From an uncultured Candidatus Saccharibacteria bacterium (GTDB taxonomy: Bacteria; Patescibacteriota; WWE3; UBA101185; UBA10185), in assembly GCA_964540135.1 (NCBI GenBank), contig CAZILK010000002.1, positions 33,074 through 97,073 of the forward strand: 64,000 bases of DNA, in the 5' to 3' direction. Positions 12,999 to 40,041 of this stretch are shown here, in pieces. Both the position numbers and the translations under genes were made by a program. Within the stretch, counting starts at the first letter, position 1. Every line of letters begins with the position of its first letter. Under the pieces are notes generated by a model that had not been told where the DNA came from, searched no databases, and saw only the letters and a list, made by a program, of their open reading frames with translations.

Positions 12999-13461
12999 AG
13001 TAGCTCGACTGTTTTAAGCCAAACAGAGTTCTATAAATAGAAAGAAGTATGACTGAGATAATTGAGGTCATAGCCCCAGAGACAACTAACCTGCCCCAGA
13101 TAAACGGGTAATGCATCATGACCACAAAAAACAAAGCATGTAGACACTGTGCTACTAATACAAAAAGGATATAGGCAAACACGTTCCGTGAGACTCTCTC
13201 AAATAGCAGACTACATACAAAGACAAACCCAATATAGAGCATAGATGTTATGCCAAGTGTGTTACCCCAAAACATGTCAAGAAAAATGCCTGAGACAAAA
13301 GCGAAAAATAGCGCATCAGCTTTTCTCCCTACGCGAAGTAAAAGCAGCACCAGGCTTAATAAAACTCCAGGAGTAAAAGCTGCAAAAAGTTCGTCAAGAA
13401 AAGCAGCCTGAACTAAAGCTAGTATAAATGCGCTTAAAAAATACATGGCATATTTTTTCAT
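12985..13461 (-). CDS. mreD: Rod shape-determining protein MreD (polytopic membrane protein)
   Basis: 158 aa with about 5 TM segments, in the canonical position after mreC. The assignment rests on synteny. Confidence 0.5.
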   Translation of the reverse strand: MKKYAMYFLSAFILALVQAAFLDELFAAFTPGVLLSLVLLLLRVGRKADALFFAFVSGIFLDMFWGNTLGITSMLYIGFVFVCSLLFERVSRNVFAYILFVLVAQCLHALFFVVMMHYPFIWGRLVVSGAMTSIISVILLSIYRTLFGLKQSSYYEVK

Positions 13462-17186: not shown

Positions 17187-17717
17187 TTAAAGGGAATGCT
17201 GGTTGCCTACACCTATACTTACAACTTTTTCTTTGCTGGTCTCTTGGAGTAAGTCAGATTCAAGAGGTTTAGCAATGGTATCGTCTTTTGCGATCCGGTC
17301 AGTGTCTCTTTTGATGTGAAGTAGTGTGTTTTTCTGGAGTTCCTCAAGCTTCTCTATCCTACTCTCCCATTTACTCTCTGATGCATGAAGTAAAGACATC
17401 ATGATGAATGTAAGGATTGTAGTTGTTGTATTAATCATCAAGTGCCATATTTCACCAAAGCCTAGGAAAAACCCTGATGGAAACCAGATAACAACAAGAA
17501 GAAGTGATAGCGCAAACCAATAGGGCGTACCAACAACTGAATCAACAGTGTCTGAGAGTTTCTCAAACATATTATAGATACGCCGACCAGTGGAGAGATC
17601 TTGTGACCCGGGCAGGTTTTTTGACATTAGTAGAATGGTATAAAATGCTTTAGTTAGTGTCAATGAATATGTTAAACTTTTTTGTGCACTTACATTAAAT
17701 TTAATGGTATGATTCAC
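17187..17717 (-). CDS. Small membrane protein, low-affinity iron permease-like (PF04120-like)
   Basis: Two TM helices followed by 'INTTTTILTF' and a C-terminal coiled-coil. Pattern recalled from the Iron_permease/DUF family. The start may be an internal Met. Confidence 0.35.
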   Translation of the reverse strand: MNHTIKFNVSAQKSLTYSLTLTKAFYTILLMSKNLPGSQDLSTGRRIYNMFEKLSDTVDSVVGTPYWFALSLLLVVIWFPSGFFLGFGEIWHLMINTTTTILTFIMMSLLHASESKWESRIEKLEELQKNTLLHIKRDTDRIAKDDTIAKPLESDLLQETSKEKVVSIGVGNQHSL

Positions 17718-17747
17718 TGTAAAAGTTGCTGTTAGACTAAAGTACTT

Positions 17748-17822
17748 GCCACCTTAGCTCAGCGGTAGAGCAATCCTTTTGTAAGGGATAGGTCGTGGGT
17801 TCAAATCCCACAGGTGGCTCCA
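17748..17822 (+). tRNA. tRNA-Thr (anticodon TGT)
   Basis: 75 nt cloverleaf. Acceptor GCCACCT/AGGTGGC, anticodon loop TTTGTAA, T-loop TTCAAAT, encoded CCA. Confidence 0.85.
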
Positions 17823-17844
17823 TTAAGTTTTAGAAGATAGAAAT

Positions 17845-17930
17845 GCCGGGATACCGAAGCGGCCAAACGGGGCAGACTGTAAATCTGCTGGTGTAAACCT
17901 ACACAGGTTCGAATCCTGTTCCCGGCACCA
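17845..17930 (+). tRNA. tRNA-Tyr (anticodon GTA), long variable arm
   Basis: 86 nt. Anticodon loop CTGTAAA, T-arm GGTTCGAATCC, encoded CCA. Confidence 0.85.
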
Positions 17931-17947
17931 ATTTATCTTCTATAAAA

Positions 17948-18022
17948 GCCTGGGTAGTTCAGTGGTAGAACGCCTCCATGGTAAGGAGGAGGTCGAGGGT
18001 TCAATTCCCTCCTCAGGCTCCA
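17948..18022 (+). tRNA. tRNA-Thr (anticodon GGT)
   Basis: 75 nt. Anticodon stem CCTCC/GGAGG with loop ATGGTAA. T-arm GGGTTCAATTCCC, CCA. The Thr-Tyr-Thr order resembles the thrU-tyrU-(glyT)-thrT cluster. Confidence 0.85.
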
Positions 18023-18121
18023 CTCATTAAATAAAATAGCGAAGCATAACAAGCAGCATTTGACATAAAGTATACGCGGTGGTATAAGAACTATAGGTCC
18101 AATTTATGCGCAGGAAAGCTT

Positions 18122-19018
18122 ATGGATAATTTTGGAAAATTTCTAACAATAACAACCTTTGGCTTCACTATAGCCGCTTGTGGGGTACGGCCTGAAACTC
18201 AGGAAACGAACACACAGCCAGACACTGAACTCCCAGAAGAACAACCCCCAACAGCAGCTCCAGCAAATCAAGCTGGCACTAATAGCGATGCTCTAACTGC
18301 CGCAACATTACCAGATATCATGAGGTATTCAGGTCTATCAGATAAACCATATACTCGCGATGTTATACTCAATAGAATGAACGGTATCCCCACAATTATC
18401 GAAATAGCCGGCATAGACCCTAATATTTATATTGAGCGTACAACAATTGCACGAGTTTTAGATTTGTGTGACGAATTAGAAGGTATACCGCTGTTTGACG
18501 ATGAAAGTCAGGACTACATTGAAGGCGAGGTTCTTCGACTAACTAGCAGAGAAGGTCTGCCTGTTACGCTAACTTTGTTTAATGAGGATGCTGTAAGAGA
18601 GGGTATGGCAGGAGACAGTGAAGCGACAGAATCTGGTAGCTTTGCATTACTTCAGGATGTTCCAATGCCTGTGAGATTCGAAGAATACGCCAATGGGACA
18701 CAAATTATAATCCCTGTAGGAGCAGGTATTACTGTCACCGCGTATAATGGAGAGATAGCATCAAATCTTTTTAAAGCCAGGCTTGCTACACAAACCGGCG
18801 ATATAACTCGTGATGTAAATTTAACCAACTTAATTGCTGAAAGCCTCGGTGTTGCGTACGCTATTGCCGCACAAGGTGAAAGCTACGAAAGCTACTTGAT
18901 GTGGTTAAGAATAAGTTCTGCTGATGATTACGGACGACTTGCTGACGGAAGACCTCTAGTGGTATCACCAAACACATACGCAAAGCTTAGCTTACCCGCG
19001 ATACTAACTTACCAGTAA
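18122..19018 (+). CDS. Hypothetical lipoprotein (signal peptide plus lipobox 'TIAAC'), markedly higher GC than the flanks
   Basis: N-terminal hydrophobic segment ending IAAC. Pro/Thr/Gln-rich linker. GC about 50% versus about 38% background, judged by eye. Confidence 0.5.
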   Translation: MDNFGKFLTITTFGFTIAACGVRPETQETNTQPDTELPEEQPPTAAPANQAGTNSDALTAATLPDIMRYSGLSDKPYTRDVILNRMNGIPTIIEIAGIDPNIYIERTTIARVLDLCDELEGIPLFDDESQDYIEGEVLRLTSREGLPVTLTLFNEDAVREGMAGDSEATESGSFALLQDVPMPVRFEEYANGTQIIIPVGAGITVTAYNGEIASNLFKARLATQTGDITRDVNLTNLIAESLGVAYAIAAQGESYESYLMWLRISSADDYGRLADGRPLVVSPNTYAKLSLPAILTYQ

Positions 19019-19089
19019 GTACTATCTGCAAAACAGAATTGCTTGTATTCCAAAACAATCATATAATCATTAAGTCTTTCGCGAGTAAA

Positions 19090-19163
19090 AGGGGCGTGGT
19101 GAAGAGGTATCACAGAGGTCTCCAAAACCTTTATCGGGGGTTCGATTCCCTCCGCCCCTGCCA
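19090..19163 (+). tRNA. tRNA-Trp (anticodon CCA)
   Basis: 74 nt. Acceptor AGGGGCG/CGCCCCT, anticodon loop CTCCAAA, T-arm GGGGGTTCGATTCCCTCC, CCA. Confidence 0.8.
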
Positions 19164-19364
19164 ATCAATCTTCTTTATATATGGAGGACATCTCCTCTTT
19201 TACTCTATCTGATAGGTATACTTTTATCAACGATTGATAAGGAACATCTTGAGAGTTTGCGAGTGTTTTAATTCGCGCCAAAAGATGCTTTGGAAGACGA
19301 AGAGAAATGGATTAGGTGCTAAGCTTTAGATTAGGAAAAACTACTCTTTCAGCTTTAGAAGACG

Positions 19365-20021
19365 CTACAATTTACCTTTTTCAAACTTAAAATCAAAAAG
19401 GTTTGGCAGGTTCTTTCCTGTTATACCCTGCAACCTAGCAGCCTTCTCGGCCGGACTCAACAAGGGATACCAGAGCTTGTCCGTTACTAATTGGGAACCC
19501 ATCAGCGCATATGCCGGTGTTATGATTAACTGAAATGCATTAAAAGCATCGATGCGAGGATCACCGGTTGGATTTTCAGGCATGAAATATAAACTTCCCA
19601 TTGTTATAAGACCTGAGACAGCTCCTGATGTTACTACTTGTGCCACCTGCGTTCTTCTGCCCTCTTGTCTCGCATTCGGATCTATGGCTCTAATTAAGTG
19701 CTCTCTTTCATGCCTCCAGACAGTATGAACATTTTGTCTAATGGCTGCTTCAACTATTTCTGGATGGGCGTGATCTAGCACTCTTGCAATGCCAACCATA
19801 CTATCAATATTCAAAAACAATGCGGGCGATGTTACTTCTGGGTATGTTGCCCCTATTAAATCTCGTACCTTTAGGACATCAGCCAATTTCATGGCAGGAG
19901 CGCTAACCGGTCCAAGTGCTCGCCAAAACTTACTATCAACACTTTTACGCCTCATATCACTCGAAACATGTGCGATTAGTAGCTTGCTATCGGTAAAAAA
20001 TAACACTCTCTCTCTCTGCAA
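19365..20021 (-). CDS. Hypothetical protein (higher GC). Possibly the C-terminal part of a gene split from 19987-20235.
   Basis: 218-aa ORF overlapping the next ORF by 35 nt in another frame. No recognisable motif. Confidence 0.35.
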   Translation of the reverse strand: MQRERVLFFTDSKLLIAHVSSDMRRKSVDSKFWRALGPVSAPAMKLADVLKVRDLIGATYPEVTSPALFLNIDSMVGIARVLDHAHPEIVEAAIRQNVHTVWRHEREHLIRAIDPNARQEGRRTQVAQVVTSGAVSGLITMGSLYFMPENPTGDPRIDAFNAFQLIITPAYALMGSQLVTDKLWYPLLSPAEKAARLQGITGKNLPNLFDFKFEKGKL

Positions 20022-20235
20022 CCTCCTCAGCCCGACTCATATCAAGATCCTTTCTACTGCGCACCTCTTCTAAAAAGTCCTTGCGGAGCTTATTAGTGTC
20101 AGCTGAAACAGTCACTACGCCATCTCTGTAGGAAGCGACCTCACTTAGTTCTCCGGGACTCGGTCTGAATAGTTGTTCTACATTTGTTTCACTCATATTT
20201 CCTGCTTCTTCGTATAATTTATCACAAATCAACAT
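19987..20235 (-). CDS. Hypothetical small protein or N-terminal fragment of a disrupted gene
   Basis: 82-aa acidic ORF overlapping the downstream ORF. Could be a frameshifted remnant. Confidence 0.25.
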   Translation of the reverse strand: MLICDKLYEEAGNMSETNVEQLFRPSPGELSEVASYRDGVVTVSADTNKLRKDFLEEVRSRKDLDMSRAEEVAERESVIFYR

Positions 20236-20333
20236 AAACGAAGAACTGACTGGGATTAATGGGCTTGTTGGATTCTGCAGAGATCAAGTGCGCCTAGCTA
20301 CCCGAGAATCTCGTATCTTTGTTACCAGACAAC

Positions 20334-21098
20334 CTAATCAAACCTTGAATTTTCAAGCATGTACAAATAGGTTACGCTCTTACTTGTCAGTTCGTGATCC
20401 AAATCAAGCTTTAGTTTTTTCGCAATAGCCTTGAGTTTCGGGACTATGATATCGCTGTCCTTATCTGTCATCATTTCTAGCTCAACCCCAGTTTTAAAAT
20501 CTTTAATATCATCAATGACTACTTTGCATTCACCGTATTTATATACTAATCGATCTTTATCAAGAGTAGTCATCTCTCTAAGGTTCATGAGGTTAAGTAG
20601 CCTTAAAGCACTCTCATAATCTGGAATATCTATCTCCTGTTCAATACAAGTATCATGTTTATATGGTGTTACTAACCTTTTTATCTCCAAAGTTGTTGTC
20701 ATCTTCCCTGTATAACCATTGTCTTGTTCTCTAATTCTTAACCCAAAACCAACACCGTTATCAAACCATTCATCTTTCTGATCTATATTTTTTATACTAC
20801 TTGGGACAAACCAATGATCTATTACATGACCGTGGTAAATAACATGCGCACCAAGTTGTAATAATATTGCCTCCACCTGTAGACGGTTTGGTGTTAAAAA
20901 GCGTAATTCAACCTCATTCAGCGGTGTTCTCGCCTCTTTTTGTGATAAAAAGGTATTAATGTCTGATTCCCTAATTCTTACTACCCTACCAACCTTGGTA
21001 GCCTTCAGTTTGCCCTGTGCAATATAGGTTCTAACTGTTTGCCAGTGAATCTTCAAATAAGCTGCAGTGTCTTTAATTGTTAATAGCCTATCACTCAT
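20334..21098 (-). CDS. Excisionase/MerR-type HTH DNA-binding domain fused to a CYTH (triphosphate tunnel metalloenzyme/CyaB-like) domain
   Basis: N-terminal 'LLTIKDTAAYLKIHWQTVRTYIAQGKLKATKVGRVVRI' (HTH_17-like). A CYTH-type 'EVELRFL' (ExExK-like) motif opens the C-terminal domain. Confidence 0.55.
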   Translation of the reverse strand: MSDRLLTIKDTAAYLKIHWQTVRTYIAQGKLKATKVGRVVRIRESDINTFLSQKEARTPLNEVELRFLTPNRLQVEAILLQLGAHVIYHGHVIDHWFVPSSIKNIDQKDEWFDNGVGFGLRIREQDNGYTGKMTTTLEIKRLVTPYKHDTCIEQEIDIPDYESALRLLNLMNLREMTTLDKDRLVYKYGECKVVIDDIKDFKTGVELEMMTDKDSDIIVPKLKAIAKKLKLDLDHELTSKSVTYLYMLENSRFD

Positions 21099-21224
21099 GC
21101 TAACGATTATATCATATTCATTATTTTAGGTGATAGGCGCAAGTTAGCCAATCTGTTGCATATGTCAAATTACCATGACACTTGACACATACCTCACAGG
21201 GAGAATATTATCCGATTACTTACT

Positions 21225-22496
21225 ATGATTGACACTAGATTACTGGAGCATATTATACTTAACCCGCATTGCAAAATTGCGGATATCCAAAAGGAACTGG
21301 GCTATAACAGAACTACTCTACTTTACAAGCTGGAAAGGCTTATAAAAGAAAGGGTAATTAAAAAGGCATTTGAAGGCAAAGTAGCTGTATACCTGCCTTC
21401 TGAAAAATCAGCAATTGAGAGCTATTTCAACTCACAAATAGACGAAACAAAGAACATACAACACCAACTACTCACTAAGTTTAAGGTAAAAAAAGGTAAA
21501 GTTGCCAAAACAAAGCCAAAGCTTGTGTTTGTTAACTACTACGACCTGCTACCTGCCTTTAAGGAAGAGCTCAACACTGCCTATGAAATAACCGACTATT
21601 CAAATAAAGAATTATTTCTCTCGCAAGAAGAATTTGCATATCGCGCGCAAGATGCTGACGTTATAGTTAATAACTGGGCATGTGATGTTGGCAAATCACT
21701 TATCAAACAGCTGCCAAAACTAAAATATATGCATGTTTCAACACACATGTATCGTTACGTTGACCTAAAAGCACTAGACGAAAACAAGATTCATTTTTCA
21801 TATCTTCAAGCACCTGATTACAGGGTTCACGCTCTCTCAGAGTTTGCAATTGCACAAACCTTTGCCCTACTTAGAAAAGTTGCTGTTGCATCTTCCCAAT
21901 TAAGATCTGGAGTTATGGAATTCAAACAATTCACTGGCGATGAACTAAGAGGAAAGGTTGTTGGAATTATTGGTACCGACGCTGTGAGTAAAGAGCTCTT
22001 TTATTCTCTTAAAAATTTAGGGACTGAGGTATATGTTCACAACGAGAACGCAGCTGCCAATCCGCATGACTGGGGTTTGTCTAAATTCACACCACTTAAA
22101 ATGTTGGTTGAGCAGTCTGACATACTTTATCTTGTAAACAGTGAGGACACTCCGCCTAAAGTTTGCGAAAGGCTTGATGCGAGTTTACTAAACTTCATCA
22201 AAAAGCCTACATACCTAATAAGTATTACAAAACACAAATATATCGACACCAAGCTTATCAAAAAATTCATCTATAACGGCAAAATTAAAGGACTGGCCTT
22301 AGATTATTTCGAAGATATGAATAAAATCAAAGAGCTTAAAGACTCTGAAATTAGTACCATCACCTACCTCCCCAATGTTTTAATAACACCAGACATAGCT
22401 TGGAGCACCAAGACATCGATTGAAAATATGAACATTGCAACGAACAAATACCTAATGGCATACGCAAAAGGAGATCATAGCTATTTGCTACTTTAA
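21225..22496 (+). CDS. Winged-HTH regulator fused to a degenerate D-isomer-specific 2-hydroxyacid dehydrogenase-like domain
   Basis: N-terminal wHTH 'KIADIQKELGYNRTTLLYKLERLIKE'. C-terminal NAD-binding-like 'VGIIGTDAVS' and 'LALDYFE'. The catalytic His position reads 'ITPDIAWST' (His replaced by Asp), which suggests a sensor pseudo-enzyme. Confidence 0.55.
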   Translation: MIDTRLLEHIILNPHCKIADIQKELGYNRTTLLYKLERLIKERVIKKAFEGKVAVYLPSEKSAIESYFNSQIDETKNIQHQLLTKFKVKKGKVAKTKPKLVFVNYYDLLPAFKEELNTAYEITDYSNKELFLSQEEFAYRAQDADVIVNNWACDVGKSLIKQLPKLKYMHVSTHMYRYVDLKALDENKIHFSYLQAPDYRVHALSEFAIAQTFALLRKVAVASSQLRSGVMEFKQFTGDELRGKVVGIIGTDAVSKELFYSLKNLGTEVYVHNENAAANPHDWGLSKFTPLKMLVEQSDILYLVNSEDTPPKVCERLDASLLNFIKKPTYLISITKHKYIDTKLIKKFIYNGKIKGLALDYFEDMNKIKELKDSEISTITYLPNVLITPDIAWSTKTSIENMNIATNKYLMAYAKGDHSYLLL

Positions 22497-22500
22497 TACA

Positions 22501-23472
22501 ATGAAATTTGTTGCATTAGATTTAGGCTATATCCATTTTGAACACCTAAGTAAAATTGGGGATATCGAGGGAATAACTGATTTTAAATACTTCCCTATCC
22601 CACCAATTGATGAGGCTGAAATCATCGCCAGAATTGGAGATGCTGAGCTTGTAACTGGGAGGGTTTATTGCAAAATTAACAAACATGTTATCGAGAATGC
22701 CACAAACCTCAAAGCAGTATTTACACAATCAGTGGGTTTTGATCACATAGACACTGACTTTGCAAAGTCTAAAGGTATTAAAGTCTACAATTGCCCCGGA
22801 TATAACTCAAATTCGGTTGCAGAGTTCGCGTTTAGCCTAGTTTTAAGTCTTTTTAGAAAAATCCCAGCTGCTCAAGAACACGTTAGAGCCGGCGGTGTTG
22901 AATACAGACTATTTGAAGGTACGGATCTCAGAAATAAAACAATTGGAATTATTGGAGCCGGCAATGTGGGCAGTAAAATTGTTTCAATTGCCAAAGGGTT
23001 TGGCATGAAGCCTCTTGTCGCTACAAAAAACCCATCTAACAAAAGAGCGCAGGCTATAGGAATAGAAGGCTTCACAGATTTAGACAAATTGTTAAGAAAC
23101 TCTGATGTAATTGTGGTTGCAGTTACCCTAACCCCTGAAACCAAGGGACTGCTGGGGAAAAAAGAACTTGGATTAATACCACAAACTAGTTTTCTGATCA
23201 ATATATCAAGACAAACAGTTATAGATGAGAACGAGCTCGCTAAACGAATAGTGGAAAGAAAAATTGCAGGCGCTGCATTAGATTTATTGCTAAAAGACCC
23301 TTTTAAAATTGACGAACATTCGCTCCTGATTCAAGAAATGGTTAATATGCCAAATGTCATAATAACTCCACATATTGCAGCTGAAACAAAAGAAGCGAAC
23401 TACAACCTAGGTGTTATAACGCTTGAAAACATTACAAACTTCTTAAGAGGAGTTGACCAAAACTTAGTATAA
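22501..23472 (+). CDS. D-isomer-specific 2-hydroxyacid dehydrogenase (intact catalytic residues)
   Basis: 'GIIGAGNVG' Rossmann motif, catalytic 'ISRQTVIDE', 'AALDLL' and 'IITPHIAAET' (catalytic His). Confidence 0.8.
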   Translation: MKFVALDLGYIHFEHLSKIGDIEGITDFKYFPIPPIDEAEIIARIGDAELVTGRVYCKINKHVIENATNLKAVFTQSVGFDHIDTDFAKSKGIKVYNCPGYNSNSVAEFAFSLVLSLFRKIPAAQEHVRAGGVEYRLFEGTDLRNKTIGIIGAGNVGSKIVSIAKGFGMKPLVATKNPSNKRAQAIGIEGFTDLDKLLRNSDVIVVAVTLTPETKGLLGKKELGLIPQTSFLINISRQTVIDENELAKRIVERKIAGAALDLLLKDPFKIDEHSLLIQEMVNMPNVIITPHIAAETKEANYNLGVITLENITNFLRGVDQNLV

Positions 23473-24285
23473 TTAGACTAGCACTGCTTCTCCCCTATTG
23501 TTTAAGACTTTAAACTTCTTTGCATTCTTCCACATGAACTCAAACACCTGCTTTTGCATCTCTGTAAGTTCTTTATTATAAATCTCAACACAAAAGATAT
23601 CAGCATCTTGATAACGGTAAAGAGCGTAAACATCGTTATAAATGAGAATTTCAAAGTTAATCTTCATTTGTTTTGCAGGAATATGTCTTATGCTCCAGTA
23701 TTTCTCAACCATCTCGTGTGTAGAAGTCCAAGCTGCAATCTTGACAACATTTGTCAGTGTTCTTATCTTTATCTTGTTCTCAACAAACCTATACCGCATG
23801 TCTTCGGCATACGCTTTATCTAAAAAAGCACTCATGTCTGAGACCTCAAGTGTAAGTAGTTCTCCTTTAGCTTTTAAAGAATTCCAAGTTACTTGCTTTA
23901 GACCCTCAACACCATGGTAATAAAGTACTTTTGAGTTCTTTTGTTCAGTGTTTGGCAGTAGTGCTAACTGCTCCTCAAGTGAATCTATATTGTTCTTAAA
24001 TAACCTGGCTTCAAACTCCTTTTGGGCAACTAAGGCTTCGAGTTGTACTTTGCCAGCAGCTTCAAATCGCTGACCCCTTGAATCAAGGATTGAATTAACT
24101 AGACCTATCTTAAGCAAACTGTCCAACATTCGGTACACTCTAGTTCTTGGGATCTCCAGCTTGCGACTTATCTCAAGGGCTGTATAGCTTGTATTTCTCC
24201 TTAATAACAGGTATAAAGAGGCTTCGTCTTGTTTAAGACCAAGAGGCAATAACAACGGTAATAAACTGTCTGTTTTATCGGACAT
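23473..24285 (-). CDS. TrmB-family transcriptional regulator
   Basis: N-terminal TrmB-type HTH 'LGLKQDEASLYLLLRRNTSYTALEISRKLEIPRTRVYRMLDSL'. Divergent from the EamA transporter gene. Confidence 0.6.
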   Translation of the reverse strand: MSDKTDSLLPLLLPLGLKQDEASLYLLLRRNTSYTALEISRKLEIPRTRVYRMLDSLLKIGLVNSILDSRGQRFEAAGKVQLEALVAQKEFEARLFKNNIDSLEEQLALLPNTEQKNSKVLYYHGVEGLKQVTWNSLKAKGELLTLEVSDMSAFLDKAYAEDMRYRFVENKIKIRTLTNVVKIAAWTSTHEMVEKYWSIRHIPAKQMKINFEILIYNDVYALYRYQDADIFCVEIYNKELTEMQKQVFEFMWKNAKKFKVLNNRGEAVLV

Positions 24286-24289
24286 CAGT

Positions 24290-25207
24290 TTGATAGTACA
24301 TCAATTGCTACTTATAATGCAAGACATGCACTATTCAAAAGGTGTTGTCTACATCTTAATATCAGCGGTCTTTTACGCCTCGTACGGCGTATGGTCTAGG
24401 CTGATGGGTTCATCTTTTGGTGAGTTTACCCAAGCCTGGACACGAGGACTATTCCTACTGGTAGTTATTCTGATACTCAACAGTAAATTTAAGTTCTTAA
24501 AGAAGTTTGGTAAGAAAGATTTGCCTTGGTTTATGCTAATTGCACTTGCCGGAGGTATTAATCAAGCTCCTTATTACTTTGGGTTTCAACATCTGCAAAT
24601 TGGTACTGCTACCCTACTCTTTTATGCCTCTCTTGTTGTTGGAGGATATGTTATGAGTAAGGTATTTCTACAAGAGAAAATTAACTCAACCAAGCTTTTT
24701 AGCCTTGGACTTTCAATTCTTGGCATGGTTTTAATTTACAAATTTTCACTCAGTACTGGGCAGCTTTTGGCAGCCGTTTTAACCTGTATCGCAGGGATTC
24801 TTGGAGCAGCAACTGTTGTACTTACAAAAAAACTTTCGGGAAATTATTCCGAGCTTCAAATTATGATTGGTTATTTTGCATTACAAGTAGTGATTAACCT
24901 CCCGCTTGCAGTTCTCAGTCACGAAGTAATGCCCTCTTTCTCAAATACAACAGCTTGGGTCGCACAAATCCTCTATGCATTTAGTATGCTTGCAGCCAAC
25001 TATGCTGTGATCGAGGGTTTTAAACATGTAGACGGAAGTATCGGCAGCTTAATCGGACTTGCTGAAATACTCTTTGGTGCTTTCTTTGGCTGGCTGTTGT
25101 TCTCAGAACTAATCTCAGCTTTTACTTTAATGGGTGGAATTATAATTATTGCTGCAGCAGCATATCCAAGTTTAAGAGCTAGAACTAAAGATGATCTTAA
25201 CTACTAG
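24290..25207 (+). CDS. EamA/DMT-superfamily transporter (10-TM)
   Basis: Two repeated 5-TM halves, with hydrophobic periodicity typical of EamA. Confidence 0.6.
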   Translation: MIVHQLLLIMQDMHYSKGVVYILISAVFYASYGVWSRLMGSSFGEFTQAWTRGLFLLVVILILNSKFKFLKKFGKKDLPWFMLIALAGGINQAPYYFGFQHLQIGTATLLFYASLVVGGYVMSKVFLQEKINSTKLFSLGLSILGMVLIYKFSLSTGQLLAAVLTCIAGILGAATVVLTKKLSGNYSELQIMIGYFALQVVINLPLAVLSHEVMPSFSNTTAWVAQILYAFSMLAANYAVIEGFKHVDGSIGSLIGLAEILFGAFFGWLLFSELISAFTLMGGIIIIAAAAYPSLRARTKDDLNY

Positions 25208-26048
25208 GTCTTTCTGATGCTCGCCTTCCCCATCCTGTACCTGGATCAAAGCGGTCGGTATCATATGGTGGTGGTACTGTAAGATCGTCTATAAGCCATG
25301 TATACCTATCTCCGTGTTTCAGCACTGTGTCAGATCTTTTTAAGTTGGGATAAAATCTGTCCGCAACCTTGTAATACAAAAATGTTAGGATGTAATCGCC
25401 GTTTGACCAGGTAACTTTTGGTAATTGCCTTGAAAGATTAAGCTCATCCAAAGTTGGAACCTCAAAAACACGTATTTTTCTTGTACCTGGTAGTCGGATT
25501 AAGTTAGTAGCCGCTATATAGGCCTCGGATATAGCGCTTTGTTCAACACCCATCTCTGTTAACTTTTTGACAATATTACCAGTCTGTTCGCCAAAAATTC
25601 TTAGATCATCAGCTACTACAAGATCATAACCTTTAAGGCTGCCCAGATCAGCTATTTCGTCTACGCTTATTGTTGAAAATCTATCTGGAGACCTTGTTGC
25701 TAGCTTGTCAGCTATCCAAACCCTACTCCCTCTCTCATCGCCATCATGAATCAACAGTATAGGCAGTTCACTAGATTCAAGATTAGCAGCTAAAACATCC
25801 AATGCATCTTCAAAAGTTTTATCATCTATGCATCTTATATTTGACCGTATGCCTTCTAAGCAGGTATCTGTGCCTCCGCTATTTAAAAATGCATCTCTAA
25901 AGTCTTCGAGCAGATCTAATCGCAACTGCTCAGGAGGGTTTTCTGGACTAATCAGTGGAGCGAGGCTCTCGCCATTTAAGCCAAGAGTCTCAAAAGATAC
26001 AGCTGCTGCTTCAGCGTATCGTACTTCATTATGCGCGGTAAGTATCAT
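25197..26048 (-). CDS. Hypothetical protein with a phosphoribosyltransferase (type I PRTase)-like segment. Higher GC.
   Basis: 'YDLVVADDLRIFGEQTGNIVKKL' resembles the PRPP-binding loop (hydrophobic-DD-x-x-TG-T) of type I PRTases. GC is clearly elevated. Confidence 0.4.
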   Translation of the reverse strand: MILTAHNEVRYAEAAAVSFETLGLNGESLAPLISPENPPEQLRLDLLEDFRDAFLNSGGTDTCLEGIRSNIRCIDDKTFEDALDVLAANLESSELPILLIHDGDERGSRVWIADKLATRSPDRFSTISVDEIADLGSLKGYDLVVADDLRIFGEQTGNIVKKLTEMGVEQSAISEAYIAATNLIRLPGTRKIRVFEVPTLDELNLSRQLPKVTWSNGDYILTFLYYKVADRFYPNLKRSDTVLKHGDRYTWLIDDLTVPPPYDTDRFDPGTGWGRRASERPSS

Positions 26049-26139
26049 TTCTAATTATAGTTTTATACTTAATAAATTAATTAATACCAAAATCAAAAAC
26101 GGAATACTCTTTTAAGTTTATAAGTTGGTGCACAGAAAT

Positions 26140-26700
26140 TCAATGTTCTTGGTTTAAAGCATCATCAAGCACCATTCTAAGATATTCAGATTTATTTACT
26201 CCTAACTCTTTTGCTTTACTTTCAAGATGAGCTTTATGTCTATCGGAAAGAAATAGGTTAAACCTGTTATGCAGGGTTTCGGTTGATATTTTGGTGATGA
26301 AATTTTCAAGAATCTCCTCATACGTATACTCGTTATATTTAGCACCGTGGAAATACCTGCTCTTAATCTTTTGGGAATAATCTTCATGTACTGACAGGCA
26401 TAACACATGTTTATTTGATTGAATTGCAAGAGTTGCTTCGTGCCCTAGTTGAAAATCTTCTTCACTAATTTCCATAATCACAGCATTTGCCCACTCAATC
26501 CCCTTTTTGATAGCAAGATAATGCTCTTCTTGTTTGGTCTTGAGATGTGAAGTTTTAGAAGTATTTAAGAGTGCTTTGTAGTTATTCTTTTCAGGAGATG
26601 TAACTACAAGATGCATTTCATCTAATTTTTTAAGTATTTTATCGTAATTTGCTTGATAGGACTTCTTTCCTCTAAACGATGCTGTAAAAAAGATGTTCAT
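26140..26700 (-). CDS. Nucleoside 2-deoxyribosyltransferase-like (NDT/DNPH1-fold) domain fused to a C-terminal ribbon-helix-helix DNA-binding domain
   Basis: N-terminal 'MNIFFTASFRG' plus a catalytic-Glu region 'VIMEISEEDFQLGHEATLAIQSNKHVLCL' (NDT-like). C-terminal 'DRHKAHLESKAKELGVNKSEYLRMVLDDAL' is CopG/Arc-type RHH. Start set at the internal Met. Confidence 0.5.
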   Translation of the reverse strand: MNIFFTASFRGKKSYQANYDKILKKLDEMHLVVTSPEKNNYKALLNTSKTSHLKTKQEEHYLAIKKGIEWANAVIMEISEEDFQLGHEATLAIQSNKHVLCLSVHEDYSQKIKSRYFHGAKYNEYTYEEILENFITKISTETLHNRFNLFLSDRHKAHLESKAKELGVNKSEYLRMVLDDALNQEH

Positions 26701-26763
26701 ACATATGTATGTATACACTAGTATATACAGGAATGCAAGAACAGTGGTATATAGTATATACAT

Positions 26764-27220
26764 ATGATTACAGGTATCGGAACACATATTAAAGTTAGGG
26801 ACTTTAAAAAATCAGTGGCTTTTTATAAAGCACTTGGCTTTAAGAAAGTCTTTGAATGCGGACCAAAATGCCCCGTGAAAGAAGCTTATAGCGGGATGAT
26901 TTTTGAAACACGGTGGCTGTAAGCTAGAAATCGCTGATGGTCACAGAGCTGTTAAAAAAGAGGTGTTTTTAGAACAAGTTACAAGTTCAAAAATATCGTT
27001 AGTAATATATGTCTCAACTCTTGGAAACGTGATCAAGTCTTGCGAACGAGCCGGCATTACAATTGCTGTAAAACCAAGACATTTCTACTGGAATACACTT
27101 GAGCTTGTTATAAAAGATCCTGACGGAGTTGTTCTAGTATTTGTAGCGCCATACATTAAACGCGAAGCTAAAAAACTAAACGCAGATGAAACATATTCTG
27201 TACAGAGCATGAGTCCTTAA
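26764..27220 (+). pseudogene. Glyoxalase/VOC-family gene disrupted by a +1 frameshift near a T4 run (~26900)
   Basis: ATG at 26764 encodes 'MITGIGTHIKVRDFKKSVAFYKALGF...', a VOC N-terminal beta-alpha-beta-beta-beta module, and ends at TAA 26920. The rest of the domain ('...KLEIADGH...PRHFYWNTLELVIKDPDGVVLVF') continues in the +1 frame from 26903. Confidence 0.5.
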
Positions 27221-27239
27221 TGCATTAATTGACAGTGAT

Positions 27240-27779
27240 ATGGAGCTTTGCAAAATTAAAACAAAATGTTTTAATTACTGTATGACATCTGAAACGAACA
27301 GTGACAAAGAAGTAGTACACGCTGAAAGAGAGCCTTCTGTGGACATGAGCGCTGCGTGTCTTTTGTATCTTATTCAAAATAGGGTTGGCGTAAAAGAAAG
27401 TATTTTTGTAAATTGGTCCCAAAGTAATGCAAGCGGTGCAAAAATAAGTGACGAGCCGGGACTTCTTGAGGAAATAATAAATGTTGCGAATGAAGGCCCT
27501 AACACAGACGTGGATGAAGACAGAGTACGAGCGTGGTTCGGCGTATTAAAATATAACGCTGGTGCTAGTTTTATATCGATTGAACAGGCACGAGGTCTGG
27601 GGAAAAGGGTAGGTGTTTTAATAGATTATTTACAAGACAGAGGTGTTGGCGCTGAGAGAGAACTAGCGACTTTAAACGAGGAAAATATCGGTCCAACACT
27701 TAGAAATGAGATTTTAAAGGCTACGCCTTCGTACGGAATATCTCCTAGTCAGTCAGAACAGATCTCCTCACTAGTGTAG
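27240..27779 (+). CDS. Hypothetical protein
   Basis: 179-aa ORF with no recognisable motif. The start may be an internal Met. Confidence 0.3.
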   Translation: MELCKIKTKCFNYCMTSETNSDKEVVHAEREPSVDMSAACLLYLIQNRVGVKESIFVNWSQSNASGAKISDEPGLLEEIINVANEGPNTDVDEDRVRAWFGVLKYNAGASFISIEQARGLGKRVGVLIDYLQDRGVGAERELATLNEENIGPTLRNEILKATPSYGISPSQSEQISSLV

Positions 27780-27914
27780 TTTTTCATACTTAATTTTCCC
27801 GATACAGAGCTCATCCTGTTTTTGTAGCTCTATACAACAAACAAGGAGCTAAAAGCAGACAAAATCTTCGCAATACAACCTGAGCCTGGTTAGCTTTTTT
27901 GATATACTTCCAGC

Positions 27915-28436
27915 ATGAGTAATATCACAATCAGAGAAGCAAAGCTAACAGATGCTGGAAGAATTGCAGAAATTCACATTAAAACTTGGCAGTTTGCCTA
28001 TAAAGGACTGATGCCGGATATTTTTCTCGCAGGTCTTTCTGTAGAAGCAAGAAAGACTTCATGGGAGAAAGCTCTATCTAATCCTAATCCAAAGGAAAGA
28101 TTTTTTGTAGCAGAATTAGATGGAAAACTTGTTGGTTTTTGTGGTCTTGGGGCAAGCAGAGACAATGATGCAGCTGAGGATACGGGTGAACTATACGCGA
28201 TCTATATTGATCCAGATTACATGGGAATAGGTGCAGGTTCTATACTAATGGCTACAGGACTTGCCTATCTTAAGGAAGTGGGTTTTAACTCTGCAACTCT
28301 TTGGGTTTTATCAACAAATACAAAAACACGCGAGTTTTATGAACACAAAGGGTGGAAAGCTGACGGCAAAACTAAAGTAGAAGCAAGACAAGATTTTGAG
28401 CTTCATGAGACTAGGTACGTTACTAGCTTAGTGTGA
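27915..28436 (+). CDS. GNAT-family N-acetyltransferase
   Basis: Acetyl-CoA-binding 'IYIDPDYMGIGAGSILM' (Q/RxxGxG/A-type motif) and a typical ~170-aa GNAT fold. Confidence 0.8.
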   Translation: MSNITIREAKLTDAGRIAEIHIKTWQFAYKGLMPDIFLAGLSVEARKTSWEKALSNPNPKERFFVAELDGKLVGFCGLGASRDNDAAEDTGELYAIYIDPDYMGIGAGSILMATGLAYLKEVGFNSATLWVLSTNTKTREFYEHKGWKADGKTKVEARQDFELHETRYVTSLV

Positions 28437-28457
28437 AAACCGAAAAACTATCAATAA

Positions 28458-28778
28458 CTAGACTAACGAGATAGGATAAATATCAAAAGAAACCTCATCA
28501 TAGGGATGAACTTGTTTTACTGCTGCCATAACTCCCTGAAGAAGATCTTTTGAGCAAACTGCTTCGATCCTCTCTTCCTCAGCTTCTGCAAACTCACCCA
28601 CTGAACCGATAACTGGATTAGCACCATTTAAAGGCTTGTAACGAGCTACTCCCGTTACCGAAAAACTACAATGACTATAGTTACCTATTTTCCCAGCTCC
28701 GGCATCCCCCATCGCTTTTCTTACCTGATCTGCATGTGTAACTGGTACAAAAACAGCTAATTTAACAATATCTTCCAT
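28458..28778 (-). CDS. Small conserved protein, GlnB/NIF3-insert-like alpha/beta fold (tentative)
   Basis: 106 aa. 'GDAGAGKIGNYSHCSF...HPYDEVSFDIYPI' recalled as similar to the standalone PII-like domain found in NIF3/YqfO proteins. Not verifiable here. Confidence 0.35.
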   Translation of the reverse strand: MEDIVKLAVFVPVTHADQVRKAMGDAGAGKIGNYSHCSFSVTGVARYKPLNGANPVIGSVGEFAEAEEERIEAVCSKDLLQGVMAAVKQVHPYDEVSFDIYPISLV

Positions 28779-28880
28779 AAAGCTAGATTAGACTATATTT
28801 GCCAAAAGATAAATATGAAAAAGATAAAGAAAGTAAGCAAATACCAATACCCCCGATCAACCTCAACAAGTCGAGGTGCT

Positions 28881-30044
28881 CTAGTTAGTCGATTGGCTGA
28901 CTGAAATCCCTCCAAAGTCGGTATATATCAGTGAACCTTTTAGAGGACCTGAGGTGACTATAATATGTTCATATTCCTCTGGAGTTCCCCCATTTTCAAA
29001 AACTATAGATCCAGTTGAATATAACATCTCTCGTAGCTCATCTGGAGTGTAATCAGGAATTGAAGTTGAGAATGTTACAGAATTTCCAGCAGCTCCAAGT
29101 ATTCTAAAGTCAACCTTGACATGAGAACGCCCATTTGAATCAACTGCAGCTTCACCTATATCTACTAGCGATTCTGGTAACGCGTCAACTTGTTCTGGGC
29201 TTAAATGCGTACCAGCTATCGGCAAGTGCAACCTACCCTCATCATCAACGTACGCACCAGCTTCGTTCAGTATACTCATAACATCGTCTCTATCGTCTTC
29301 CCCAACTATCTTTTCCTGCAATCTAGTGAAAAAACTGTCCTCAGCTGGATCCGGTGTGTACTCTGCTACTGGGTGCAAGTCCAAAGTACTAGGCATAGAT
29401 ACACCATTTAATTCCGCAATTTCAACATAACCATATCCGACCATGCCACCCACATGAGTCCAAGCTTTAAAATCGTACCTATTTGGATATTTATTACTTG
29501 GAAGGACTATTAATAGATTACCTTCACTGGCTGCTCGTGCAATTTTTGTTGAAGACTCATCATCCAGCTCACCAGATACTGTAATACTTAATATGTGTTT
29601 TTCACCGCCTGGTTCTTCAAACTCAAGTCCTATTTCAGTTACTAGCGGATTACCAACATAATCTGAAGAGTGCATATGTTTAAAACTAACTTCAATAGGC
29701 AGTTCAAGAGAAAAATACCCATCTCCAGGTTTAATGACTTTTCGACTCAGCAATTCTTGTAAACCGTCGGTAAACACACCATCTCGTGACTGGGCTTCGC
29801 CATCAAAGCGCATTGAAGGCCTAGTATGATCGGCAAGAGGGTTAGGTACCTTGGCATTCTCAATCATCTCAGCCAAAGCTTCTTGTCTTTCTTCAAGAGG
29901 TATAGAGGACTCAGGCCTGATGCTTGTAACTGCATCTGCAACCTTGTTTTCACCATAGATGTACCCCCCGAGAGCCGCGGCTCCTCCTAGACTTGCTATA
30001 AATAGTGCTGCCTTAGCCTTATCAGCATTCGAAAATTCCGACAT
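28881..30044 (-). CDS. Hypothetical secreted/membrane-anchored acidic protein
   Basis: N-terminal hydrophobic helix, then a 360-aa acidic domain. Elevated GC. No catalytic motif recognised. Confidence 0.45.
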   Translation of the reverse strand: MSEFSNADKAKAALFIASLGGAAALGGYIYGENKVADAVTSIRPESSIPLEERQEALAEMIENAKVPNPLADHTRPSMRFDGEAQSRDGVFTDGLQELLSRKVIKPGDGYFSLELPIEVSFKHMHSSDYVGNPLVTEIGLEFEEPGGEKHILSITVSGELDDESSTKIARAASEGNLLIVLPSNKYPNRYDFKAWTHVGGMVGYGYVEIAELNGVSMPSTLDLHPVAEYTPDPAEDSFFTRLQEKIVGEDDRDDVMSILNEAGAYVDDEGRLHLPIAGTHLSPEQVDALPESLVDIGEAAVDSNGRSHVKVDFRILGAAGNSVTFSTSIPDYTPDELREMLYSTGSIVFENGGTPEEYEHIIVTSGPLKGSLIYTDFGGISVSQSTN

Positions 30045-30176
30045 ACTACTAAAACCTCCTTTAAAATAAAATGTATCAATTTAATTATATATAAAAAACA
30101 TAAAAAGCGAAAGCTGATTTGATTTAACCTATTATTCGACCTCTGAATTCTTAAACACATTAGAATTTCGAAATAG

Positions 30177-30767
30177 TTGGCTAAATATAAGCTAGAAAGG
30201 ATAAGCACACTTATTCTAGAAGTCCTGCTTGAATTCAACTACAATCCATATATGACAACGCTTGGTCACATAACATCATCATATATACTAGCTAATGCCT
30301 CAAGACTTGTAGGAGTCAGTCCAACAGATAGTGAGATTCTAATTACAGTACTTGCAGGTAATATACTTGATCTTGATGTAATTGCCGGTGTATTGCTCAA
30401 AAAACGAGGCGATGAACACCACAACTTCATAACACACTCGCCTTTTGGTGCACTTCTTATCTATATCCCTATCGCAGTATTACTTGCCTACTTTGAAAAT
30501 TACTTCCTTCTTATTTTAATACCCCTCGCATTCCTCTTACACTTGGTACTTGATGACATAAGTTACTGGTTTTACCGTTTTGGATTTCAACAAATTAGCA
30601 AATATCCCCAAATAAATTGGCTGTATCCTGTCAGAAAAGGACGAACTGACAATTGGTCCCCATCCAATAGATACGCAATCATCACCTACTTTAAAAAAGC
30701 TCGAGTAAATGTTGCTATTGAGCTTATTTTTTTAGTAGTTGCAGTATTACTTTTTATCTATAGCTGA
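30177..30767 (+). CDS. Membrane-bound metal-dependent hydrolase-like protein (DUF457/YdjM-like), tentative
   Basis: Polytopic membrane protein with His/Asp-rich loops ('GDEHHNFITHSPF'). Confidence 0.35.
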   Translation: MAKYKLERISTLILEVLLEFNYNPYMTTLGHITSSYILANASRLVGVSPTDSEILITVLAGNILDLDVIAGVLLKKRGDEHHNFITHSPFGALLIYIPIAVLLAYFENYFLLILIPLAFLLHLVLDDISYWFYRFGFQQISKYPQINWLYPVRKGRTDNWSPSNRYAIITYFKKARVNVAIELIFLVVAVLLFIYS

Positions 30768-30804
30768 TTCTCAAATTAAGCATAGACTGCAGAGCAGTCT
30801 GGGT

Positions 30805-31674
30805 ATGGAAGTAAATATCGATTTGTTTTACAATCCTCAAATGAGTACCCTCGGAACAAGAGAAGATAATATTCAAATTGGCAATATAATTTCCTCAAAT
30901 TACGGACTTACAATAAGCTTTATTGAGCTTATCAGCTGGGGCTATACGACAAATTGCTTCTATATAAAAACAGATGAGGGAGATTTTGTTGCGCGTGTTT
31001 CTGATTTTAGTGAAGAGAAAGTACTAGATATTAAACGAGATATGCTCATCTCAAGTGTACTAGGAAGTGAGTTTTTACTGCCAACATTTCTTAAAACAAC
31101 CAATGAAGAAGATCTTGTAACCTTTACAGATCTTGATAACAAAAAAAGACTGCTTAGGATATCCGATCACAAAGAAGGAGTCATGCCTTTTGCTCTTGAT
31201 GAAGAGCTACTTATTAAAATAACTGAATATCTTTACAAGTTACATAATACTGTCCCTGTAACCGCACTTAACCAGCTCCGCGACTCGGAACTGGTCCCAA
31301 GCATCTCAAGTCCCCATCAAGTACTACTACATGGAGATTTAACACCGTCAAATGTACTTGTTGCACATGGGGAGATTGTTAGAGTTGTGGACTTTGAAAT
31401 GGCACACTTTGGTCCCCCAGAGTATGATCTTGCCAAAACCGCACTCTTTTCTTGGTTTTACTTAAATAAAAAAGAATTTACAGAGATTACTGAAATAGTA
31501 ACAAGAGCATATGCAAAGAATTTAAACAAAGACCTGCTTAATGAATACTCTAAAACACATCTCAAAACGCATCTAGATAATATTTTAGCTCATGAGGGTT
31601 CTTATCAGAATCCTGCAGATTTCCAAAGAGATGTAACCTTCACCAAATCTATGCTCTCACGCCTCCTGAGTTAA
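30805..31674 (+). CDS. Aminoglycoside-phosphotransferase/choline-kinase-like (APH-fold) kinase
   Basis: Catalytic loop 'LLHGDLTPSNVLV' (HGDxxxxN) and metal-binding 'VVDFEMAHFG' (DFE). Confidence 0.6.
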   Translation: MEVNIDLFYNPQMSTLGTREDNIQIGNIISSNYGLTISFIELISWGYTTNCFYIKTDEGDFVARVSDFSEEKVLDIKRDMLISSVLGSEFLLPTFLKTTNEEDLVTFTDLDNKKRLLRISDHKEGVMPFALDEELLIKITEYLYKLHNTVPVTALNQLRDSELVPSISSPHQVLLHGDLTPSNVLVAHGEIVRVVDFEMAHFGPPEYDLAKTALFSWFYLNKKEFTEITEIVTRAYAKNLNKDLLNEYSKTHLKTHLDNILAHEGSYQNPADFQRDVTFTKSMLSRLLS

Positions 31675-33204: not shown

Positions 33205-33659
33205 TTATCCCCCCAAACTTCCTCACCTGCTATTTTTATAACCTCAATATTATTTGACTTGAAAAGACTTAGAGAAGCGTTGCCGTCATTTATATAGTCA
33301 GTCATGTAATAAAGTTTTGAGATACTTGCTTTAACGAGAAGTCTTGCACAGGCGGGACATGGGAACGTTGTCACATAAATCTCAGTTCCCTTAAGACTTA
33401 TCCCCTTCGCTGCGGCTTGACCTACAACCGATGCTTCTGCATGAATAGAACATGTAATCTCAGGACATCTCCCGGCTGTCAGTTCTCTTTCCCTCCTATC
33501 ACAAACTCCCTTTTGACAATATATCTCTCCGGGAAGAGTTTCGTTAAAGCTGGTGAGAATTTTAGTACCATCTCTCACAACAATACAGCCAACTTTATGA
33601 AAACAAAGCGAGTTATCACACAGGAGACAGGCAGATTTCATTATTTCTTTAGGCAGCAT
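33192..33659 (-). CDS. Deoxycytidylate (dCMP) deaminase, ComEB-like
   Basis: Zinc motifs 'HAEASVV' (H-A-E) and 'PCPACARLL' (PCxxC). It is ~155 aa, typical of dCMP deaminases. Overlaps the ThyA-like gene by 13 nt. Confidence 0.8.
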   Translation of the reverse strand: MLPKEIMKSACLLCDNSLCFHKVGCIVVRDGTKILTSFNETLPGEIYCQKGVCDRRERELTAGRCPEITCSIHAEASVVGQAAAKGISLKGTEIYVTTFPCPACARLLVKASISKLYYMTDYINDGNASLSLFKSNNIEVIKIAGEEVWGDKWTY

Positions 33660-39867: not shown

Positions 39868-40041
39868 GTGATAAAGTTTTTACAATCATCTTATGACGAA
39901 CTTAAACTTGTAAGCTGGCCGACAAGAGCTGAGGCAACTAGGCTTTGCCTTATTATTGCAGGTATGAGTATTTTTATAAGTTTATTTGTAGCGGGAGCAG
40001 ATTTTGTGTATACTAAGCTGCTCGAATTAATTATTAACTAA
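39868..40041 (+). CDS. secE: Preprotein translocase subunit SecE (missed by the ORF track, GTG start)
   Basis: Translation '...FLQSSYDELKLVSWPTRAEATRLCLIIAGMSIFISLFVAGADFVYTKLLELI' matches the SecE C-terminal signature (EL+KV.WP...) and TM helix. It sits directly upstream of nusG as in most bacteria. Confidence 0.55.
   Translation: MIKFLQSSYDELKLVSWPTRAEATRLCLIIAGMSIFISLFVAGADFVYTKLLELIIN

Follow-up and report, generated by a model that had tools for sequence, protein, structure and literature searches.

A probable hot spot of gene turnover beside a tRNA cluster in an uncultured Patescibacteria genome

Flexible islands at tRNA genes and the locus described here

Two kinds of flexible genomic island (fGI) offer the closest comparisons for the locus described here, a variable region beside a tRNA cluster in a 64,000-nt stretch (“the window”) of an uncultured Patescibacteria genome (GenBank assembly GCA_964540135.1, contig CAZILK010000002.1, positions 33,074 to 97,073). 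Replacement fGIs are tRNA-flanked, functionally equivalent, and highly divergent cassettes that are exchanged by homologous recombination (PMC10872708). Additive fGIs are exemplified by fGI-2 of ‘Ca. Methylopumilus,’ which follows a tRNA-Lys gene and ranges from 330 bp to 42 kb (PMC10872708).

The region in question extends from 18023 to ~30800 of the window. Comparison with relatives makes it probable that it is a chromosomal hot spot of gene turnover (a flexible region) between two conserved syntenic blocks, with two adjacent slots for which tRNA genes serve as fixed landmarks. Slot 1 (18023-19089) extends from tRNA-Thr(GGU) to tRNA-Trp, and slot 2 (19164 to ~30800) from tRNA-Trp to the gene for an APH-family kinase. 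The block is neither compositionally foreign nor an integrase-borne island; in the window it is a composite of residents, additions, and dead genes, and both gene loss and gain contribute to the hot spot. The initial annotation of this DNA had spoken of a “repeatedly invaded accessory region.” The synteny shows this to be close to the truth, except that gene loss must be added, and moves the right boundary from the proposed 30.1 kb to ~30.8 kb, after a gene for a YdjM-family membrane protein.

Among described systems, replacement and additive fGIs together, minus the tRNA-repeat signature, are the best description of the two slots; the locus is a further example of a known phenomenon, in an under-studied phylum. 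Slot 2 shares with additive fGIs a fixed tRNA-bounded site with a wide size range (here 171 bp to 11.6 kb), a streamlined and otherwise syntenic host genome, and a content that includes many hypothetical proteins along with transport, metabolism, and resistance-type cargo. It differs in that repeated copies of a tRNA 3′ end, which would be expected of an additive fGI, were found neither here nor in six relatives; in that the window copy has no mobile-element gene, although a transposase and toxin-antitoxin modules occur in the slot in relatives; and in that part of its content is ancestral rather than added. Slot 1, like a replacement fGI, is flanked by tRNA genes on both sides and holds homologous envelope-protein alleles (about 24-33% identity), and identity to the sister species breaks down abruptly within the gene and is restored at the following tRNA. 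Classical replacement fGIs, however, are multi-gene glycosylation or O-antigen clusters, whereas slot 1 has one or two lipoprotein genes, and differential loss of old tandem paralogues would explain it without recombination.

The two slots in related genomes

Corresponding loci were recovered through homologues of Fmt and APH, and by genome and metagenome scans with ThyA and TrmB. They include a sister species (~88-90% nucleotide identity), represented by one contig for the left side (L004) and another for the right (L025), and more distant relatives (L006, L008, L027, L029, L031, and L013) with 51-56% identity in Fmt and 73-76% in ThyA. The flanks are collinear in L004, L006, L008, L025, L027, L029, and L031, with 51-96% protein identity. 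The left flank runs from mreC-mreB through def-fmt, L28, and an iron permease gene to the tRNA-Thr-Tyr-Thr cluster (17748-18022), a conserved left anchor of slot 1 that is found 3′ of the permease gene in L004, L006, L008, L027, L029, and L031 too. The right flank runs from APH through a fusion of MtrA-like, ThyA, and PterinBD domains, dCMP deaminase, and cytidylyltransferase to HIT; APH and the fusion are collinear in L006, L008, L012-L016, L025, L027, L029, and L031. The distance between tRNA-Trp and APH varies between these flanks (Table 1), and is largest in the window among the loci compared. A comparison of this kind had been suggested in the initial annotation, and its outcome supports a variable accessory region.

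Table 1. Content of the two slots at the window locus and its counterparts
Locus	Slot 1	Slot 2 length	Slot 2 content
Window	one lipoprotein gene	11.6 kb	brnA remnant through YdjM (see Table 2)
L004 (sister species, left side)	one lipoprotein gene		266-aa hydrolase-like gene, 286-aa GNAT gene, brnTA, mazE
L006	1 bp, no gene	~1 kb	73-aa ORF, NUDIX
L008	two lipoprotein genes	171 bp	no gene
L013		>5.4 kb	NUDIX, distant TrmB-like gene, PNPOx, GNAT, GH10
L027	two lipoprotein genes	2.7 kb	68-aa ORF, TrmB, EamA, 73-aa ORF, remnant of 283-aa gene
L029	two lipoprotein genes	~1 kb	NUDIX, remnant of 283-aa gene
L031	one lipoprotein gene	5.1 kb	split IS256/Mutator transposase, 199-aa ORF, TrmB, EamA, 73-aa ORF, NUDIX

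Slot 2 thus varies in size and content at a fixed site in otherwise syntenic genomes, as an additive island does. Most of the genes at 19.2-30.8 kb have no counterpart in L006, L008, L027, L029, or L031, and two sub-blocks, 19361-23472 and 26049-30800, have none in the distant relatives. The outer ends of these lineage-specific sub-blocks are common to the sister species: brnA on the left, and on the right YdjM and the N-terminus of a 387-aa orphan protein, with an extra 479 bp before APH in L025. The centre of the slot is different. The divergent pair of genes for a TrmB-family regulator and an EamA transporter is found in the same tRNA-Trp-APH slot in L027 (77.6% and 76.4% identity, respectively) and L031 (75% and 74%), and the pair is also present in L032; this conservation (74-78%) equals that of ThyA. 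Remnants of the adjoining gene for a 283-aa acidic protein immediately precede APH, with unchanged orientation, in both L027/L028 (residues 10-56, from the N-terminal part) and L029/L030 (residues 194-241 and 254-276, from the C-terminal part). These three genes are therefore old residents. Several genes flagged in the initial annotation are no newcomers: besides these three, the slot 1 lipoprotein belongs to a positional family with members in six relatives.

Two of the relatives show what kinds of change occur at the left end of slot 2. In L004, 2.06 kb (3535-5594, with the hydrolase-like and GNAT genes) is inserted exactly at the CCA end of tRNA-Trp, which is itself 100% identical to that of the window; the insert lacks any repeat derived from the tRNA, and its junctions overlap by only 4 nt. 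In L031, the split transposase gene (12175-13108) directly adjoins tRNA-Trp, showing that mobile elements do land in slot 2. No mobile element was found in the window's own slot.

Slot 1 has lengths of 1 bp, ~1.0-1.1 kb, and ~1.9 kb across the loci. The lipoprotein gene that had been placed between tRNA-Thr(GGU) and tRNA-Trp in the window is confirmed as an open reading frame (ORF). Its product has no match in Pfam, NCBIfam, PHROG, or PADLOC, and a search of genome contigs with it found no relatives; a single-sequence AlphaFold2 model was unusable (mean pLDDT 30.5). It does have positional homologues in L004 (27% identity), L008 (34%), L027 (30%), and L029 (26%), as well as in L031. In an alignment of nine slot 1 proteins, the lipobox cysteine (Cys20) is invariant, and there are conserved residues near the C-terminus. 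The proteins form two subfamilies, an upstream one of ~265 aa and a downstream one of ~270-300 aa.

The window and L004 have 88.8% nucleotide identity up to a point 68 nt into the lipoprotein ORF, just past the signal peptide and lipobox, where it vanishes; it is back to 100% at tRNA-Trp. The L004 allele scores 114 bits against the allele of the distant L031, and just 47 bits against that of the window, despite 88-100% identity of the L004 and window flanks; for the window allele, the nearest is the one in L008 (114 bits). The cassettes that occupy slot 1 are thus homologous yet highly divergent, and do not follow the core phylogeny. This disagreement between allele classes and flanks points to replacement-type behaviour, and an identity break 68 nt into the ORF followed by an identical tRNA-Trp would fit homologous recombination through conserved borders. 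The data are compatible with recombination that replaces cassettes, as well as with old tandem paralogues that have been retained differentially. A more ambitious version would have the slot 1 lipoprotein as a dedicated surface-protein replacement cassette of an episymbiotic clade, with alleles of ~25-33% identity swapped between lineages by recombination anchored in the tRNA genes and the conserved signal-peptide region as hosts or phages impose diversifying selection, and slot 2 as the main landing pad of the clade for new genes; this is speculative, and on balance we regard it as doubtful.

Base composition and alternative explanations

The initial annotation singled out four GC-rich genes in the region, and put the lipoprotein gene at ~50% GC. 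Against a window mean of 38.0%, it actually has 43.1%, and the others have 41-43%: 43.4% and 42.6% in the two ORFs of a split gene (19365-20235), 41.4% in the 283-aa gene, and 42.4% in the gene for the 387-aa orphan (z = 1.5-2.4 among ORFs of the window). What does stand is their clustering in the block, which includes six of the eight GC-richest ORFs of the window and is non-random (hypergeometric p ~0.001). There is no paralogy among them. The GC content at third codon positions (GC3) is that of the background in three of the four (0.30-0.31, vs. 0.30), with the surplus in codon positions 1 and 2, and their proteins are acidic, rich in A, G, and P, and poor in I, K, N, F, and Y. For the block as a whole, GC3 is 0.308, against 0.294 elsewhere in the window (p = 0.33), and synonymous codon usage is no different inside the block and outside it (Mann-Whitney p = 0.92). 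Departures in tetranucleotide and dinucleotide signature are seen only at 17.5-21 kb (tetranucleotide distance z 2.1-2.7), and do not exceed those of the ribosomal-protein cluster or the region at 4.5-7.5 kb; across 21-30 kb, tetranucleotide z is within -1.2 to +1.2, as in the background. Since GC3, codon, and tetranucleotide usage are all host-like, the GC surplus stems from amino-acid composition. Lipoprotein homologues in five relatives likewise have GC contents 2-6 points above those of their own loci, with low GC3, so that the surplus is a property of the protein family rather than a sign of foreign origin. The block does not have the atypical composition of integrative islands, and the sliding-composition checks that the initial annotation had proposed give no foreign signal.

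The same annotation had offered an eroded integrative element as its other option. Under this explanation an island, an integrative and conjugative element, or a prophage remnant would have targeted tRNA-Trp or tRNA-Thr, and since lost its integrase and att sites. The block does resemble tRNA-targeting elements of these kinds, and tycheposons, in its position directly 3′ of tRNA genes, an excisionase-family helix-turn-helix (HTH) domain (20334-21098), a toxin-antitoxin remnant exactly at the 3′ end of tRNA-Trp, and three pseudogenes; strand switches are also frequent (0.5 per gene junction, vs. 0.11 in the left flank). Positive signs of such an element are lacking, however. No tyrosine or serine recombinase was found among all ORFs from 17187 to 33659 by Pfam, NCBIfam, PHROG, or PADLOC scans, as the initial annotation had itself observed, and the window block has no transposase, conjugation, phage, or defence genes. 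When unannotated ORFs were scanned with PHROG, PADLOC, and NCBIfam, the sole match was the excisionase-type HTH, where PHROG excisionase families match just the HTH part of a protein in which it is fused to a CYTH domain and is regulator-like. In a search for att repeats, blastn-short and a repeat finder gave only chance-level matches of ≤12 nt; the 3′ ends of tRNA-Trp and tRNA-Thr (17-18 nt, allowing up to three mismatches), whose direct repeats had been suggested as a check, matched only the tRNAs themselves in the window and in six relatives. Comparison of both halves of the block with 50,697 phage and 72,556 plasmid records (blastn) gave no match, nor did scans of IMG/VR with two block proteins. 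The composition, as above, is host-like. Most directly, presence and absence do not follow a single unit: L027 and L031 share only TrmB-EamA with the window (plus the remnant of the 283-aa gene in L027), and L029 just the remnant. TrmB-EamA and the 283-aa gene are ancestral at the site in relatives without the rest of the block, which therefore cannot be one inserted unit. An integrative element as a single unit is largely refuted, and we consider an origin of this kind distinctly improbable.

It could also be supposed that there was no horizontal input at all, and that an ancestral gene set has been lost to varying degrees in the relatives, with most of it kept here. TrmB-EamA and the 283-aa gene clearly behave in this way: some relatives have them, intact or decayed, and others lack them; the fully host-like composition would agree; and CPR (candidate phyla radiation) genomes are known to be reductive. 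Several relatives, however, have non-homologous genes in the slot, including NUDIX and a 73-aa ORF in L006, L029, and L031; PNPOx, GNAT, and GH10 in L013; the hydrolase-like gene, 286-aa GNAT, brnTA, and mazE in L004; and a transposase in L031. A homologue of the split gene is found at an unrelated core locus in L033, the L004 indel falls exactly at the tRNA-Trp end despite flanks that are ~89% identical, and the 387-aa protein has no homologue outside the genus-level group. Loss alone is thus rather unlikely to account for the region. An artefact of assembly or binning, with a chimeric contig joined at repeated tRNA genes, might be suspected because tRNA genes are classic points of mis-joining and GC alternates slightly along the region. 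It is hardly credible here: an independently built 21.7-kb Logan contig from SRR16481187, although it may share reads with the NCBI record, is 100% identical to 17971-39633, spanning the block and the right flank; contigs from SRR29289992 and SRR31051132 span 17993-19205; in contigs of the sister species, too, the outermost genes of the block adjoin these flanks; and codon usage is uniform. With identical spanning Logan contigs, a chimeric assembly was rejected.

Some points weigh against the hot-spot reading. The comparison has only ~7 relatives, deeply diverged (Fmt 51-56%) except for one fragmentary sister species, so that gains and losses cannot be polarised rigorously; the sister-species contigs L004 and L025 both break in mid-slot, leaving that part unsampled. 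A host-like composition would equally fit old, vertically inherited genes. None of the cargo genes could be traced to a donor lineage, and all same-species contigs are identical, with no presence/absence polymorphism within the population. As it stands, a turnover hot spot would work in the following way. Slot 2 would grow and shrink by piecemeal insertion, deletion, and pseudogenisation; in the window, TrmB-EamA and the 283-aa gene are its old residents, with additions on either side, of which at least the outermost are shared with the sister species, and three genes are decayed. DNA may enter through small mobile modules such as the toxin-antitoxin pairs and IS256-family transposase in the slots of relatives, and perhaps also through homologous recombination for which the conserved tRNA and APH-ThyA flanks provide the anchors. 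Compositionally similar Patescibacteria would be the donors, and reductive evolution would afterwards erode the insertions.

Gene content, neighbourhood, and significance

The features of the region are listed in Table 2. ARAGORN and Rfam agree exactly on the four tRNA genes of the initial annotation; over the whole window, Rfam finds only tRNAs and an L10 leader. The cargo of the two slots has dispensable small-molecule and envelope functions, and none of it moves DNA.

Table 2. Features of the variable region and its borders
Feature	Position	Strand	Basis or remark
tRNA-Thr(UGU)	17748-17822	+	ARAGORN, Rfam
tRNA-Tyr(GUA)	17845-17930	+	ARAGORN, Rfam
tRNA-Thr(GGU)	17948-18022	+	ARAGORN, Rfam
Lipoprotein, 298 aa, clade-specific fast-diverging family	18122-19018	+	Lipobox Cys20; positional homologues
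tRNA-Trp(CCA)	19090-19163	+	ARAGORN, Rfam; right anchor of slot 1, left anchor of slot 2
brnA/CopG-type antitoxin remnant (codons 33-96 of 96, internal stop)	19168-19359	-	Abuts tRNA-Trp 3′ end
Frameshifted HExxH membrane-protein gene, ~275 aa	19365-20235 (ORF A, 19987-20235; ORF B, 19365-20021)	-	
Excisionase-type HTH (HTH_17)-CYTH fusion	20334-21098	-	Pfam; NCBIfam TIGR01764, cyaB
Winged-HTH + degenerate D-2-hydroxyacid dehydrogenase fusion	21225-22496	+	Pfam
D-2-hydroxyacid dehydrogenase paralogue, motifs intact	22501-23472	+	Pfam, E = 2.6e-46
TrmB-family regulator	23473-24285	-	Pfam; divergent from EamA
EamA/DMT transporter	24290-25207	+	Pfam; divergent from TrmB
283-aa acidic protein	25197-26048	-	No family match
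Weakly DNPH1/Rcl-like N-terminal domain + C-terminal ribbon-helix-helix	26140-26787	-	Both assignments weak
VOC/glyoxalase pseudogene	26764-27220	+	Frameshift near 26900
179-aa hypothetical protein	within 27240-28778	+	
GNAT acetyltransferase	27915-28436	+	Pfam
Stand-alone NIF3-insert-like domain protein	28458-28778	-	PDB 2gx8 residues 159-260, E = 3.8e-32
387-aa acidic orphan, N-terminal hydrophobic anchor	28881-30044	-	
YdjM-family membrane protein	30177-30767	+	Pfam; right-most accessory gene
Conserved right flank: APH-family kinase (+), MtrA-like/ThyA/PterinBD fusion (-)	30805-33204	+/-	

Three genes in the block are dead: the brnA remnant, the frameshifted HExxH gene, and the frameshifted VOC gene. 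The first of these was not mentioned in the initial annotation. About 200 bp of it survive, and are 92.5% identical in nucleotides and 94% in amino acids to the CopG_antitoxin gene that L004 has intact beside BrnT_toxin; in the window, there is no brnT, and thus no BrnT/BrnA module of intact antitoxin and toxin. The HExxH gene had been described as possibly split, and this is now clear from homologues of 263-286 aa, which match ORF B from residue ~60 on and align to ORF A with their N-termini; a single ORF in L033, another Patescibacteria genome, spans both halves (59% and 51% identity). The frameshift falls within a (GA)n run at ~20010-20022. It is a very small family, with 18 representatives among 1.84 billion proteins in an exhaustive search; intact members have ~270 aa, share the motif WRHEREHL (HExxH), and carry hydrophobic helices at the C-terminus. 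They may be an uncharacterised family of membrane metalloproteases. The L033 homologue, the nearest (51%), lies among the core genes uvrB, dprA, argS, and lon, an unrelated location, and the gene has therefore changed either location or lineage. The VOC pseudogene, too, had been recognised correctly: its N-terminal half (MITGIGTHIKVRDFKK..., from ~26764) and its C-terminal half (26903-27220) are in different frames, with a Pfam match limited to model positions 51-121. No gene was called at this site on an independently assembled contig.

The two unusual regulator fusions of the initial annotation are both borne out by Pfam. The HTH_17-CYTH protein, which has no counterpart at the corresponding loci of the relatives, is most likely a regulator and not a free-standing Xis. 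In the winged-HTH fusion, comparison of the dehydrogenase domain with its paralogue and with PDB 1wwk shows GTDAVS in place of the GxGxxG NAD motif, Lys in place of the catalytic Arg, and Asp in place of the catalytic His; it is probably a pseudoenzyme acting as a sensor-regulator. A metagenome scan found no relatives of it. The paralogue has as its best PDB match the same 1wwk, a phosphoglycerate dehydrogenase (E = 1.9e-50), and it seems that a duplicate of this adjoining enzyme gene gave rise to the fusion as a regulator.

Further to the right, the protein at 26140-26787, whose true start is probably near 26700, matches PDB structures of DNPH1 at E ~0.005-0.01 by phmmer, and has a NikA-like ribbon-helix-helix at E = 0.0012, below the Pfam cut-off. 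The genes of 27240-28778 have no counterparts in the relatives' loci, and are lineage-specific cargo. For the 387-aa orphan, the sole match among 5.8 billion proteins was itself; a homologue (60% identity) is represented by its first 26 codons at the cut end of the sister contig L025. YdjM is 87% identical in L025, and absent from L006, L008, L027, L029, and L031.

In the right flank, the three-part fusion (31657-33204, minus strand) consists of an MtrA-like domain, thymidylate synthase, and PterinBD/DUF4346, and is kept beside dCMP deaminase in many Patescibacteria loci, with 34-96% identity. A second break in synteny lies ~5 kb to the right of the region: 3′ of HIT, the window and L006 have murB-murA, and a gene of ~2,000 aa for an alpha-2-macroglobulin-like protein is found instead in other relatives (L008 19261-20921; L027, L029 14624-20638). 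Elsewhere in the window there is another tRNA-adjacent toxin-antitoxin module (58488-59278), 30 nt downstream of tRNA-Ser(UGA), with an intact MazE/AbrB-type antitoxin gene (58606-58899) and a PIN-domain toxin gene (58877-59278). A divergent tRNA-Arg(CCU) gene lies just upstream, and the tRNA-Arg/tRNA-Ser pair is directly preceded by genes for a sortase and a PF04020 protein (4-TMS holin superfamily IV; 57296-58274, minus strand).

The tRNA landmarks of the hot spot recall the canonical bacterial order, tRNA-Thr-Tyr-(Gly)-Thr / tufB / tRNA-Trp / secE-nusG-rplKAJL. The window likewise has Thr-Tyr-Thr and Trp on the same strand as secE-nusG-rplK-rplA-rplJ-rplL, but in the position of tuf there is a lipoprotein gene, or, in L006, nothing. 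The genes secE-nusG-rplK-rplA-(L10 leader, 42187-42299)-rplJ-rplL are found at 39868-43241, with secE 20.7 kb downstream of tRNA-Trp. Most of this gap is the conserved APH-ThyA...murB-murA-folD block, not the variable block; since relatives also carry the APH-ThyA...murA-folD block, the separation of tRNA-Trp and secE predates the variable block.

Patescibacteria genomes are tiny and highly syntenic, and the organisms are almost all uncultured. Knowing where such genomes tolerate gene flux helps to separate core from adaptive genes and to judge the quality of metagenome-assembled genomes. A tRNA-adjacent hot spot can lack foreign GC content, an integrase, and att sites, and yet show up by synteny, while a mild GC surplus in orphan envelope proteins reflects their amino-acid composition and does not testify to transfer. 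As proteins that may interact with hosts or phages, the lipoprotein, which diverges fast, and the membrane-anchored orphan are reasonable candidates.

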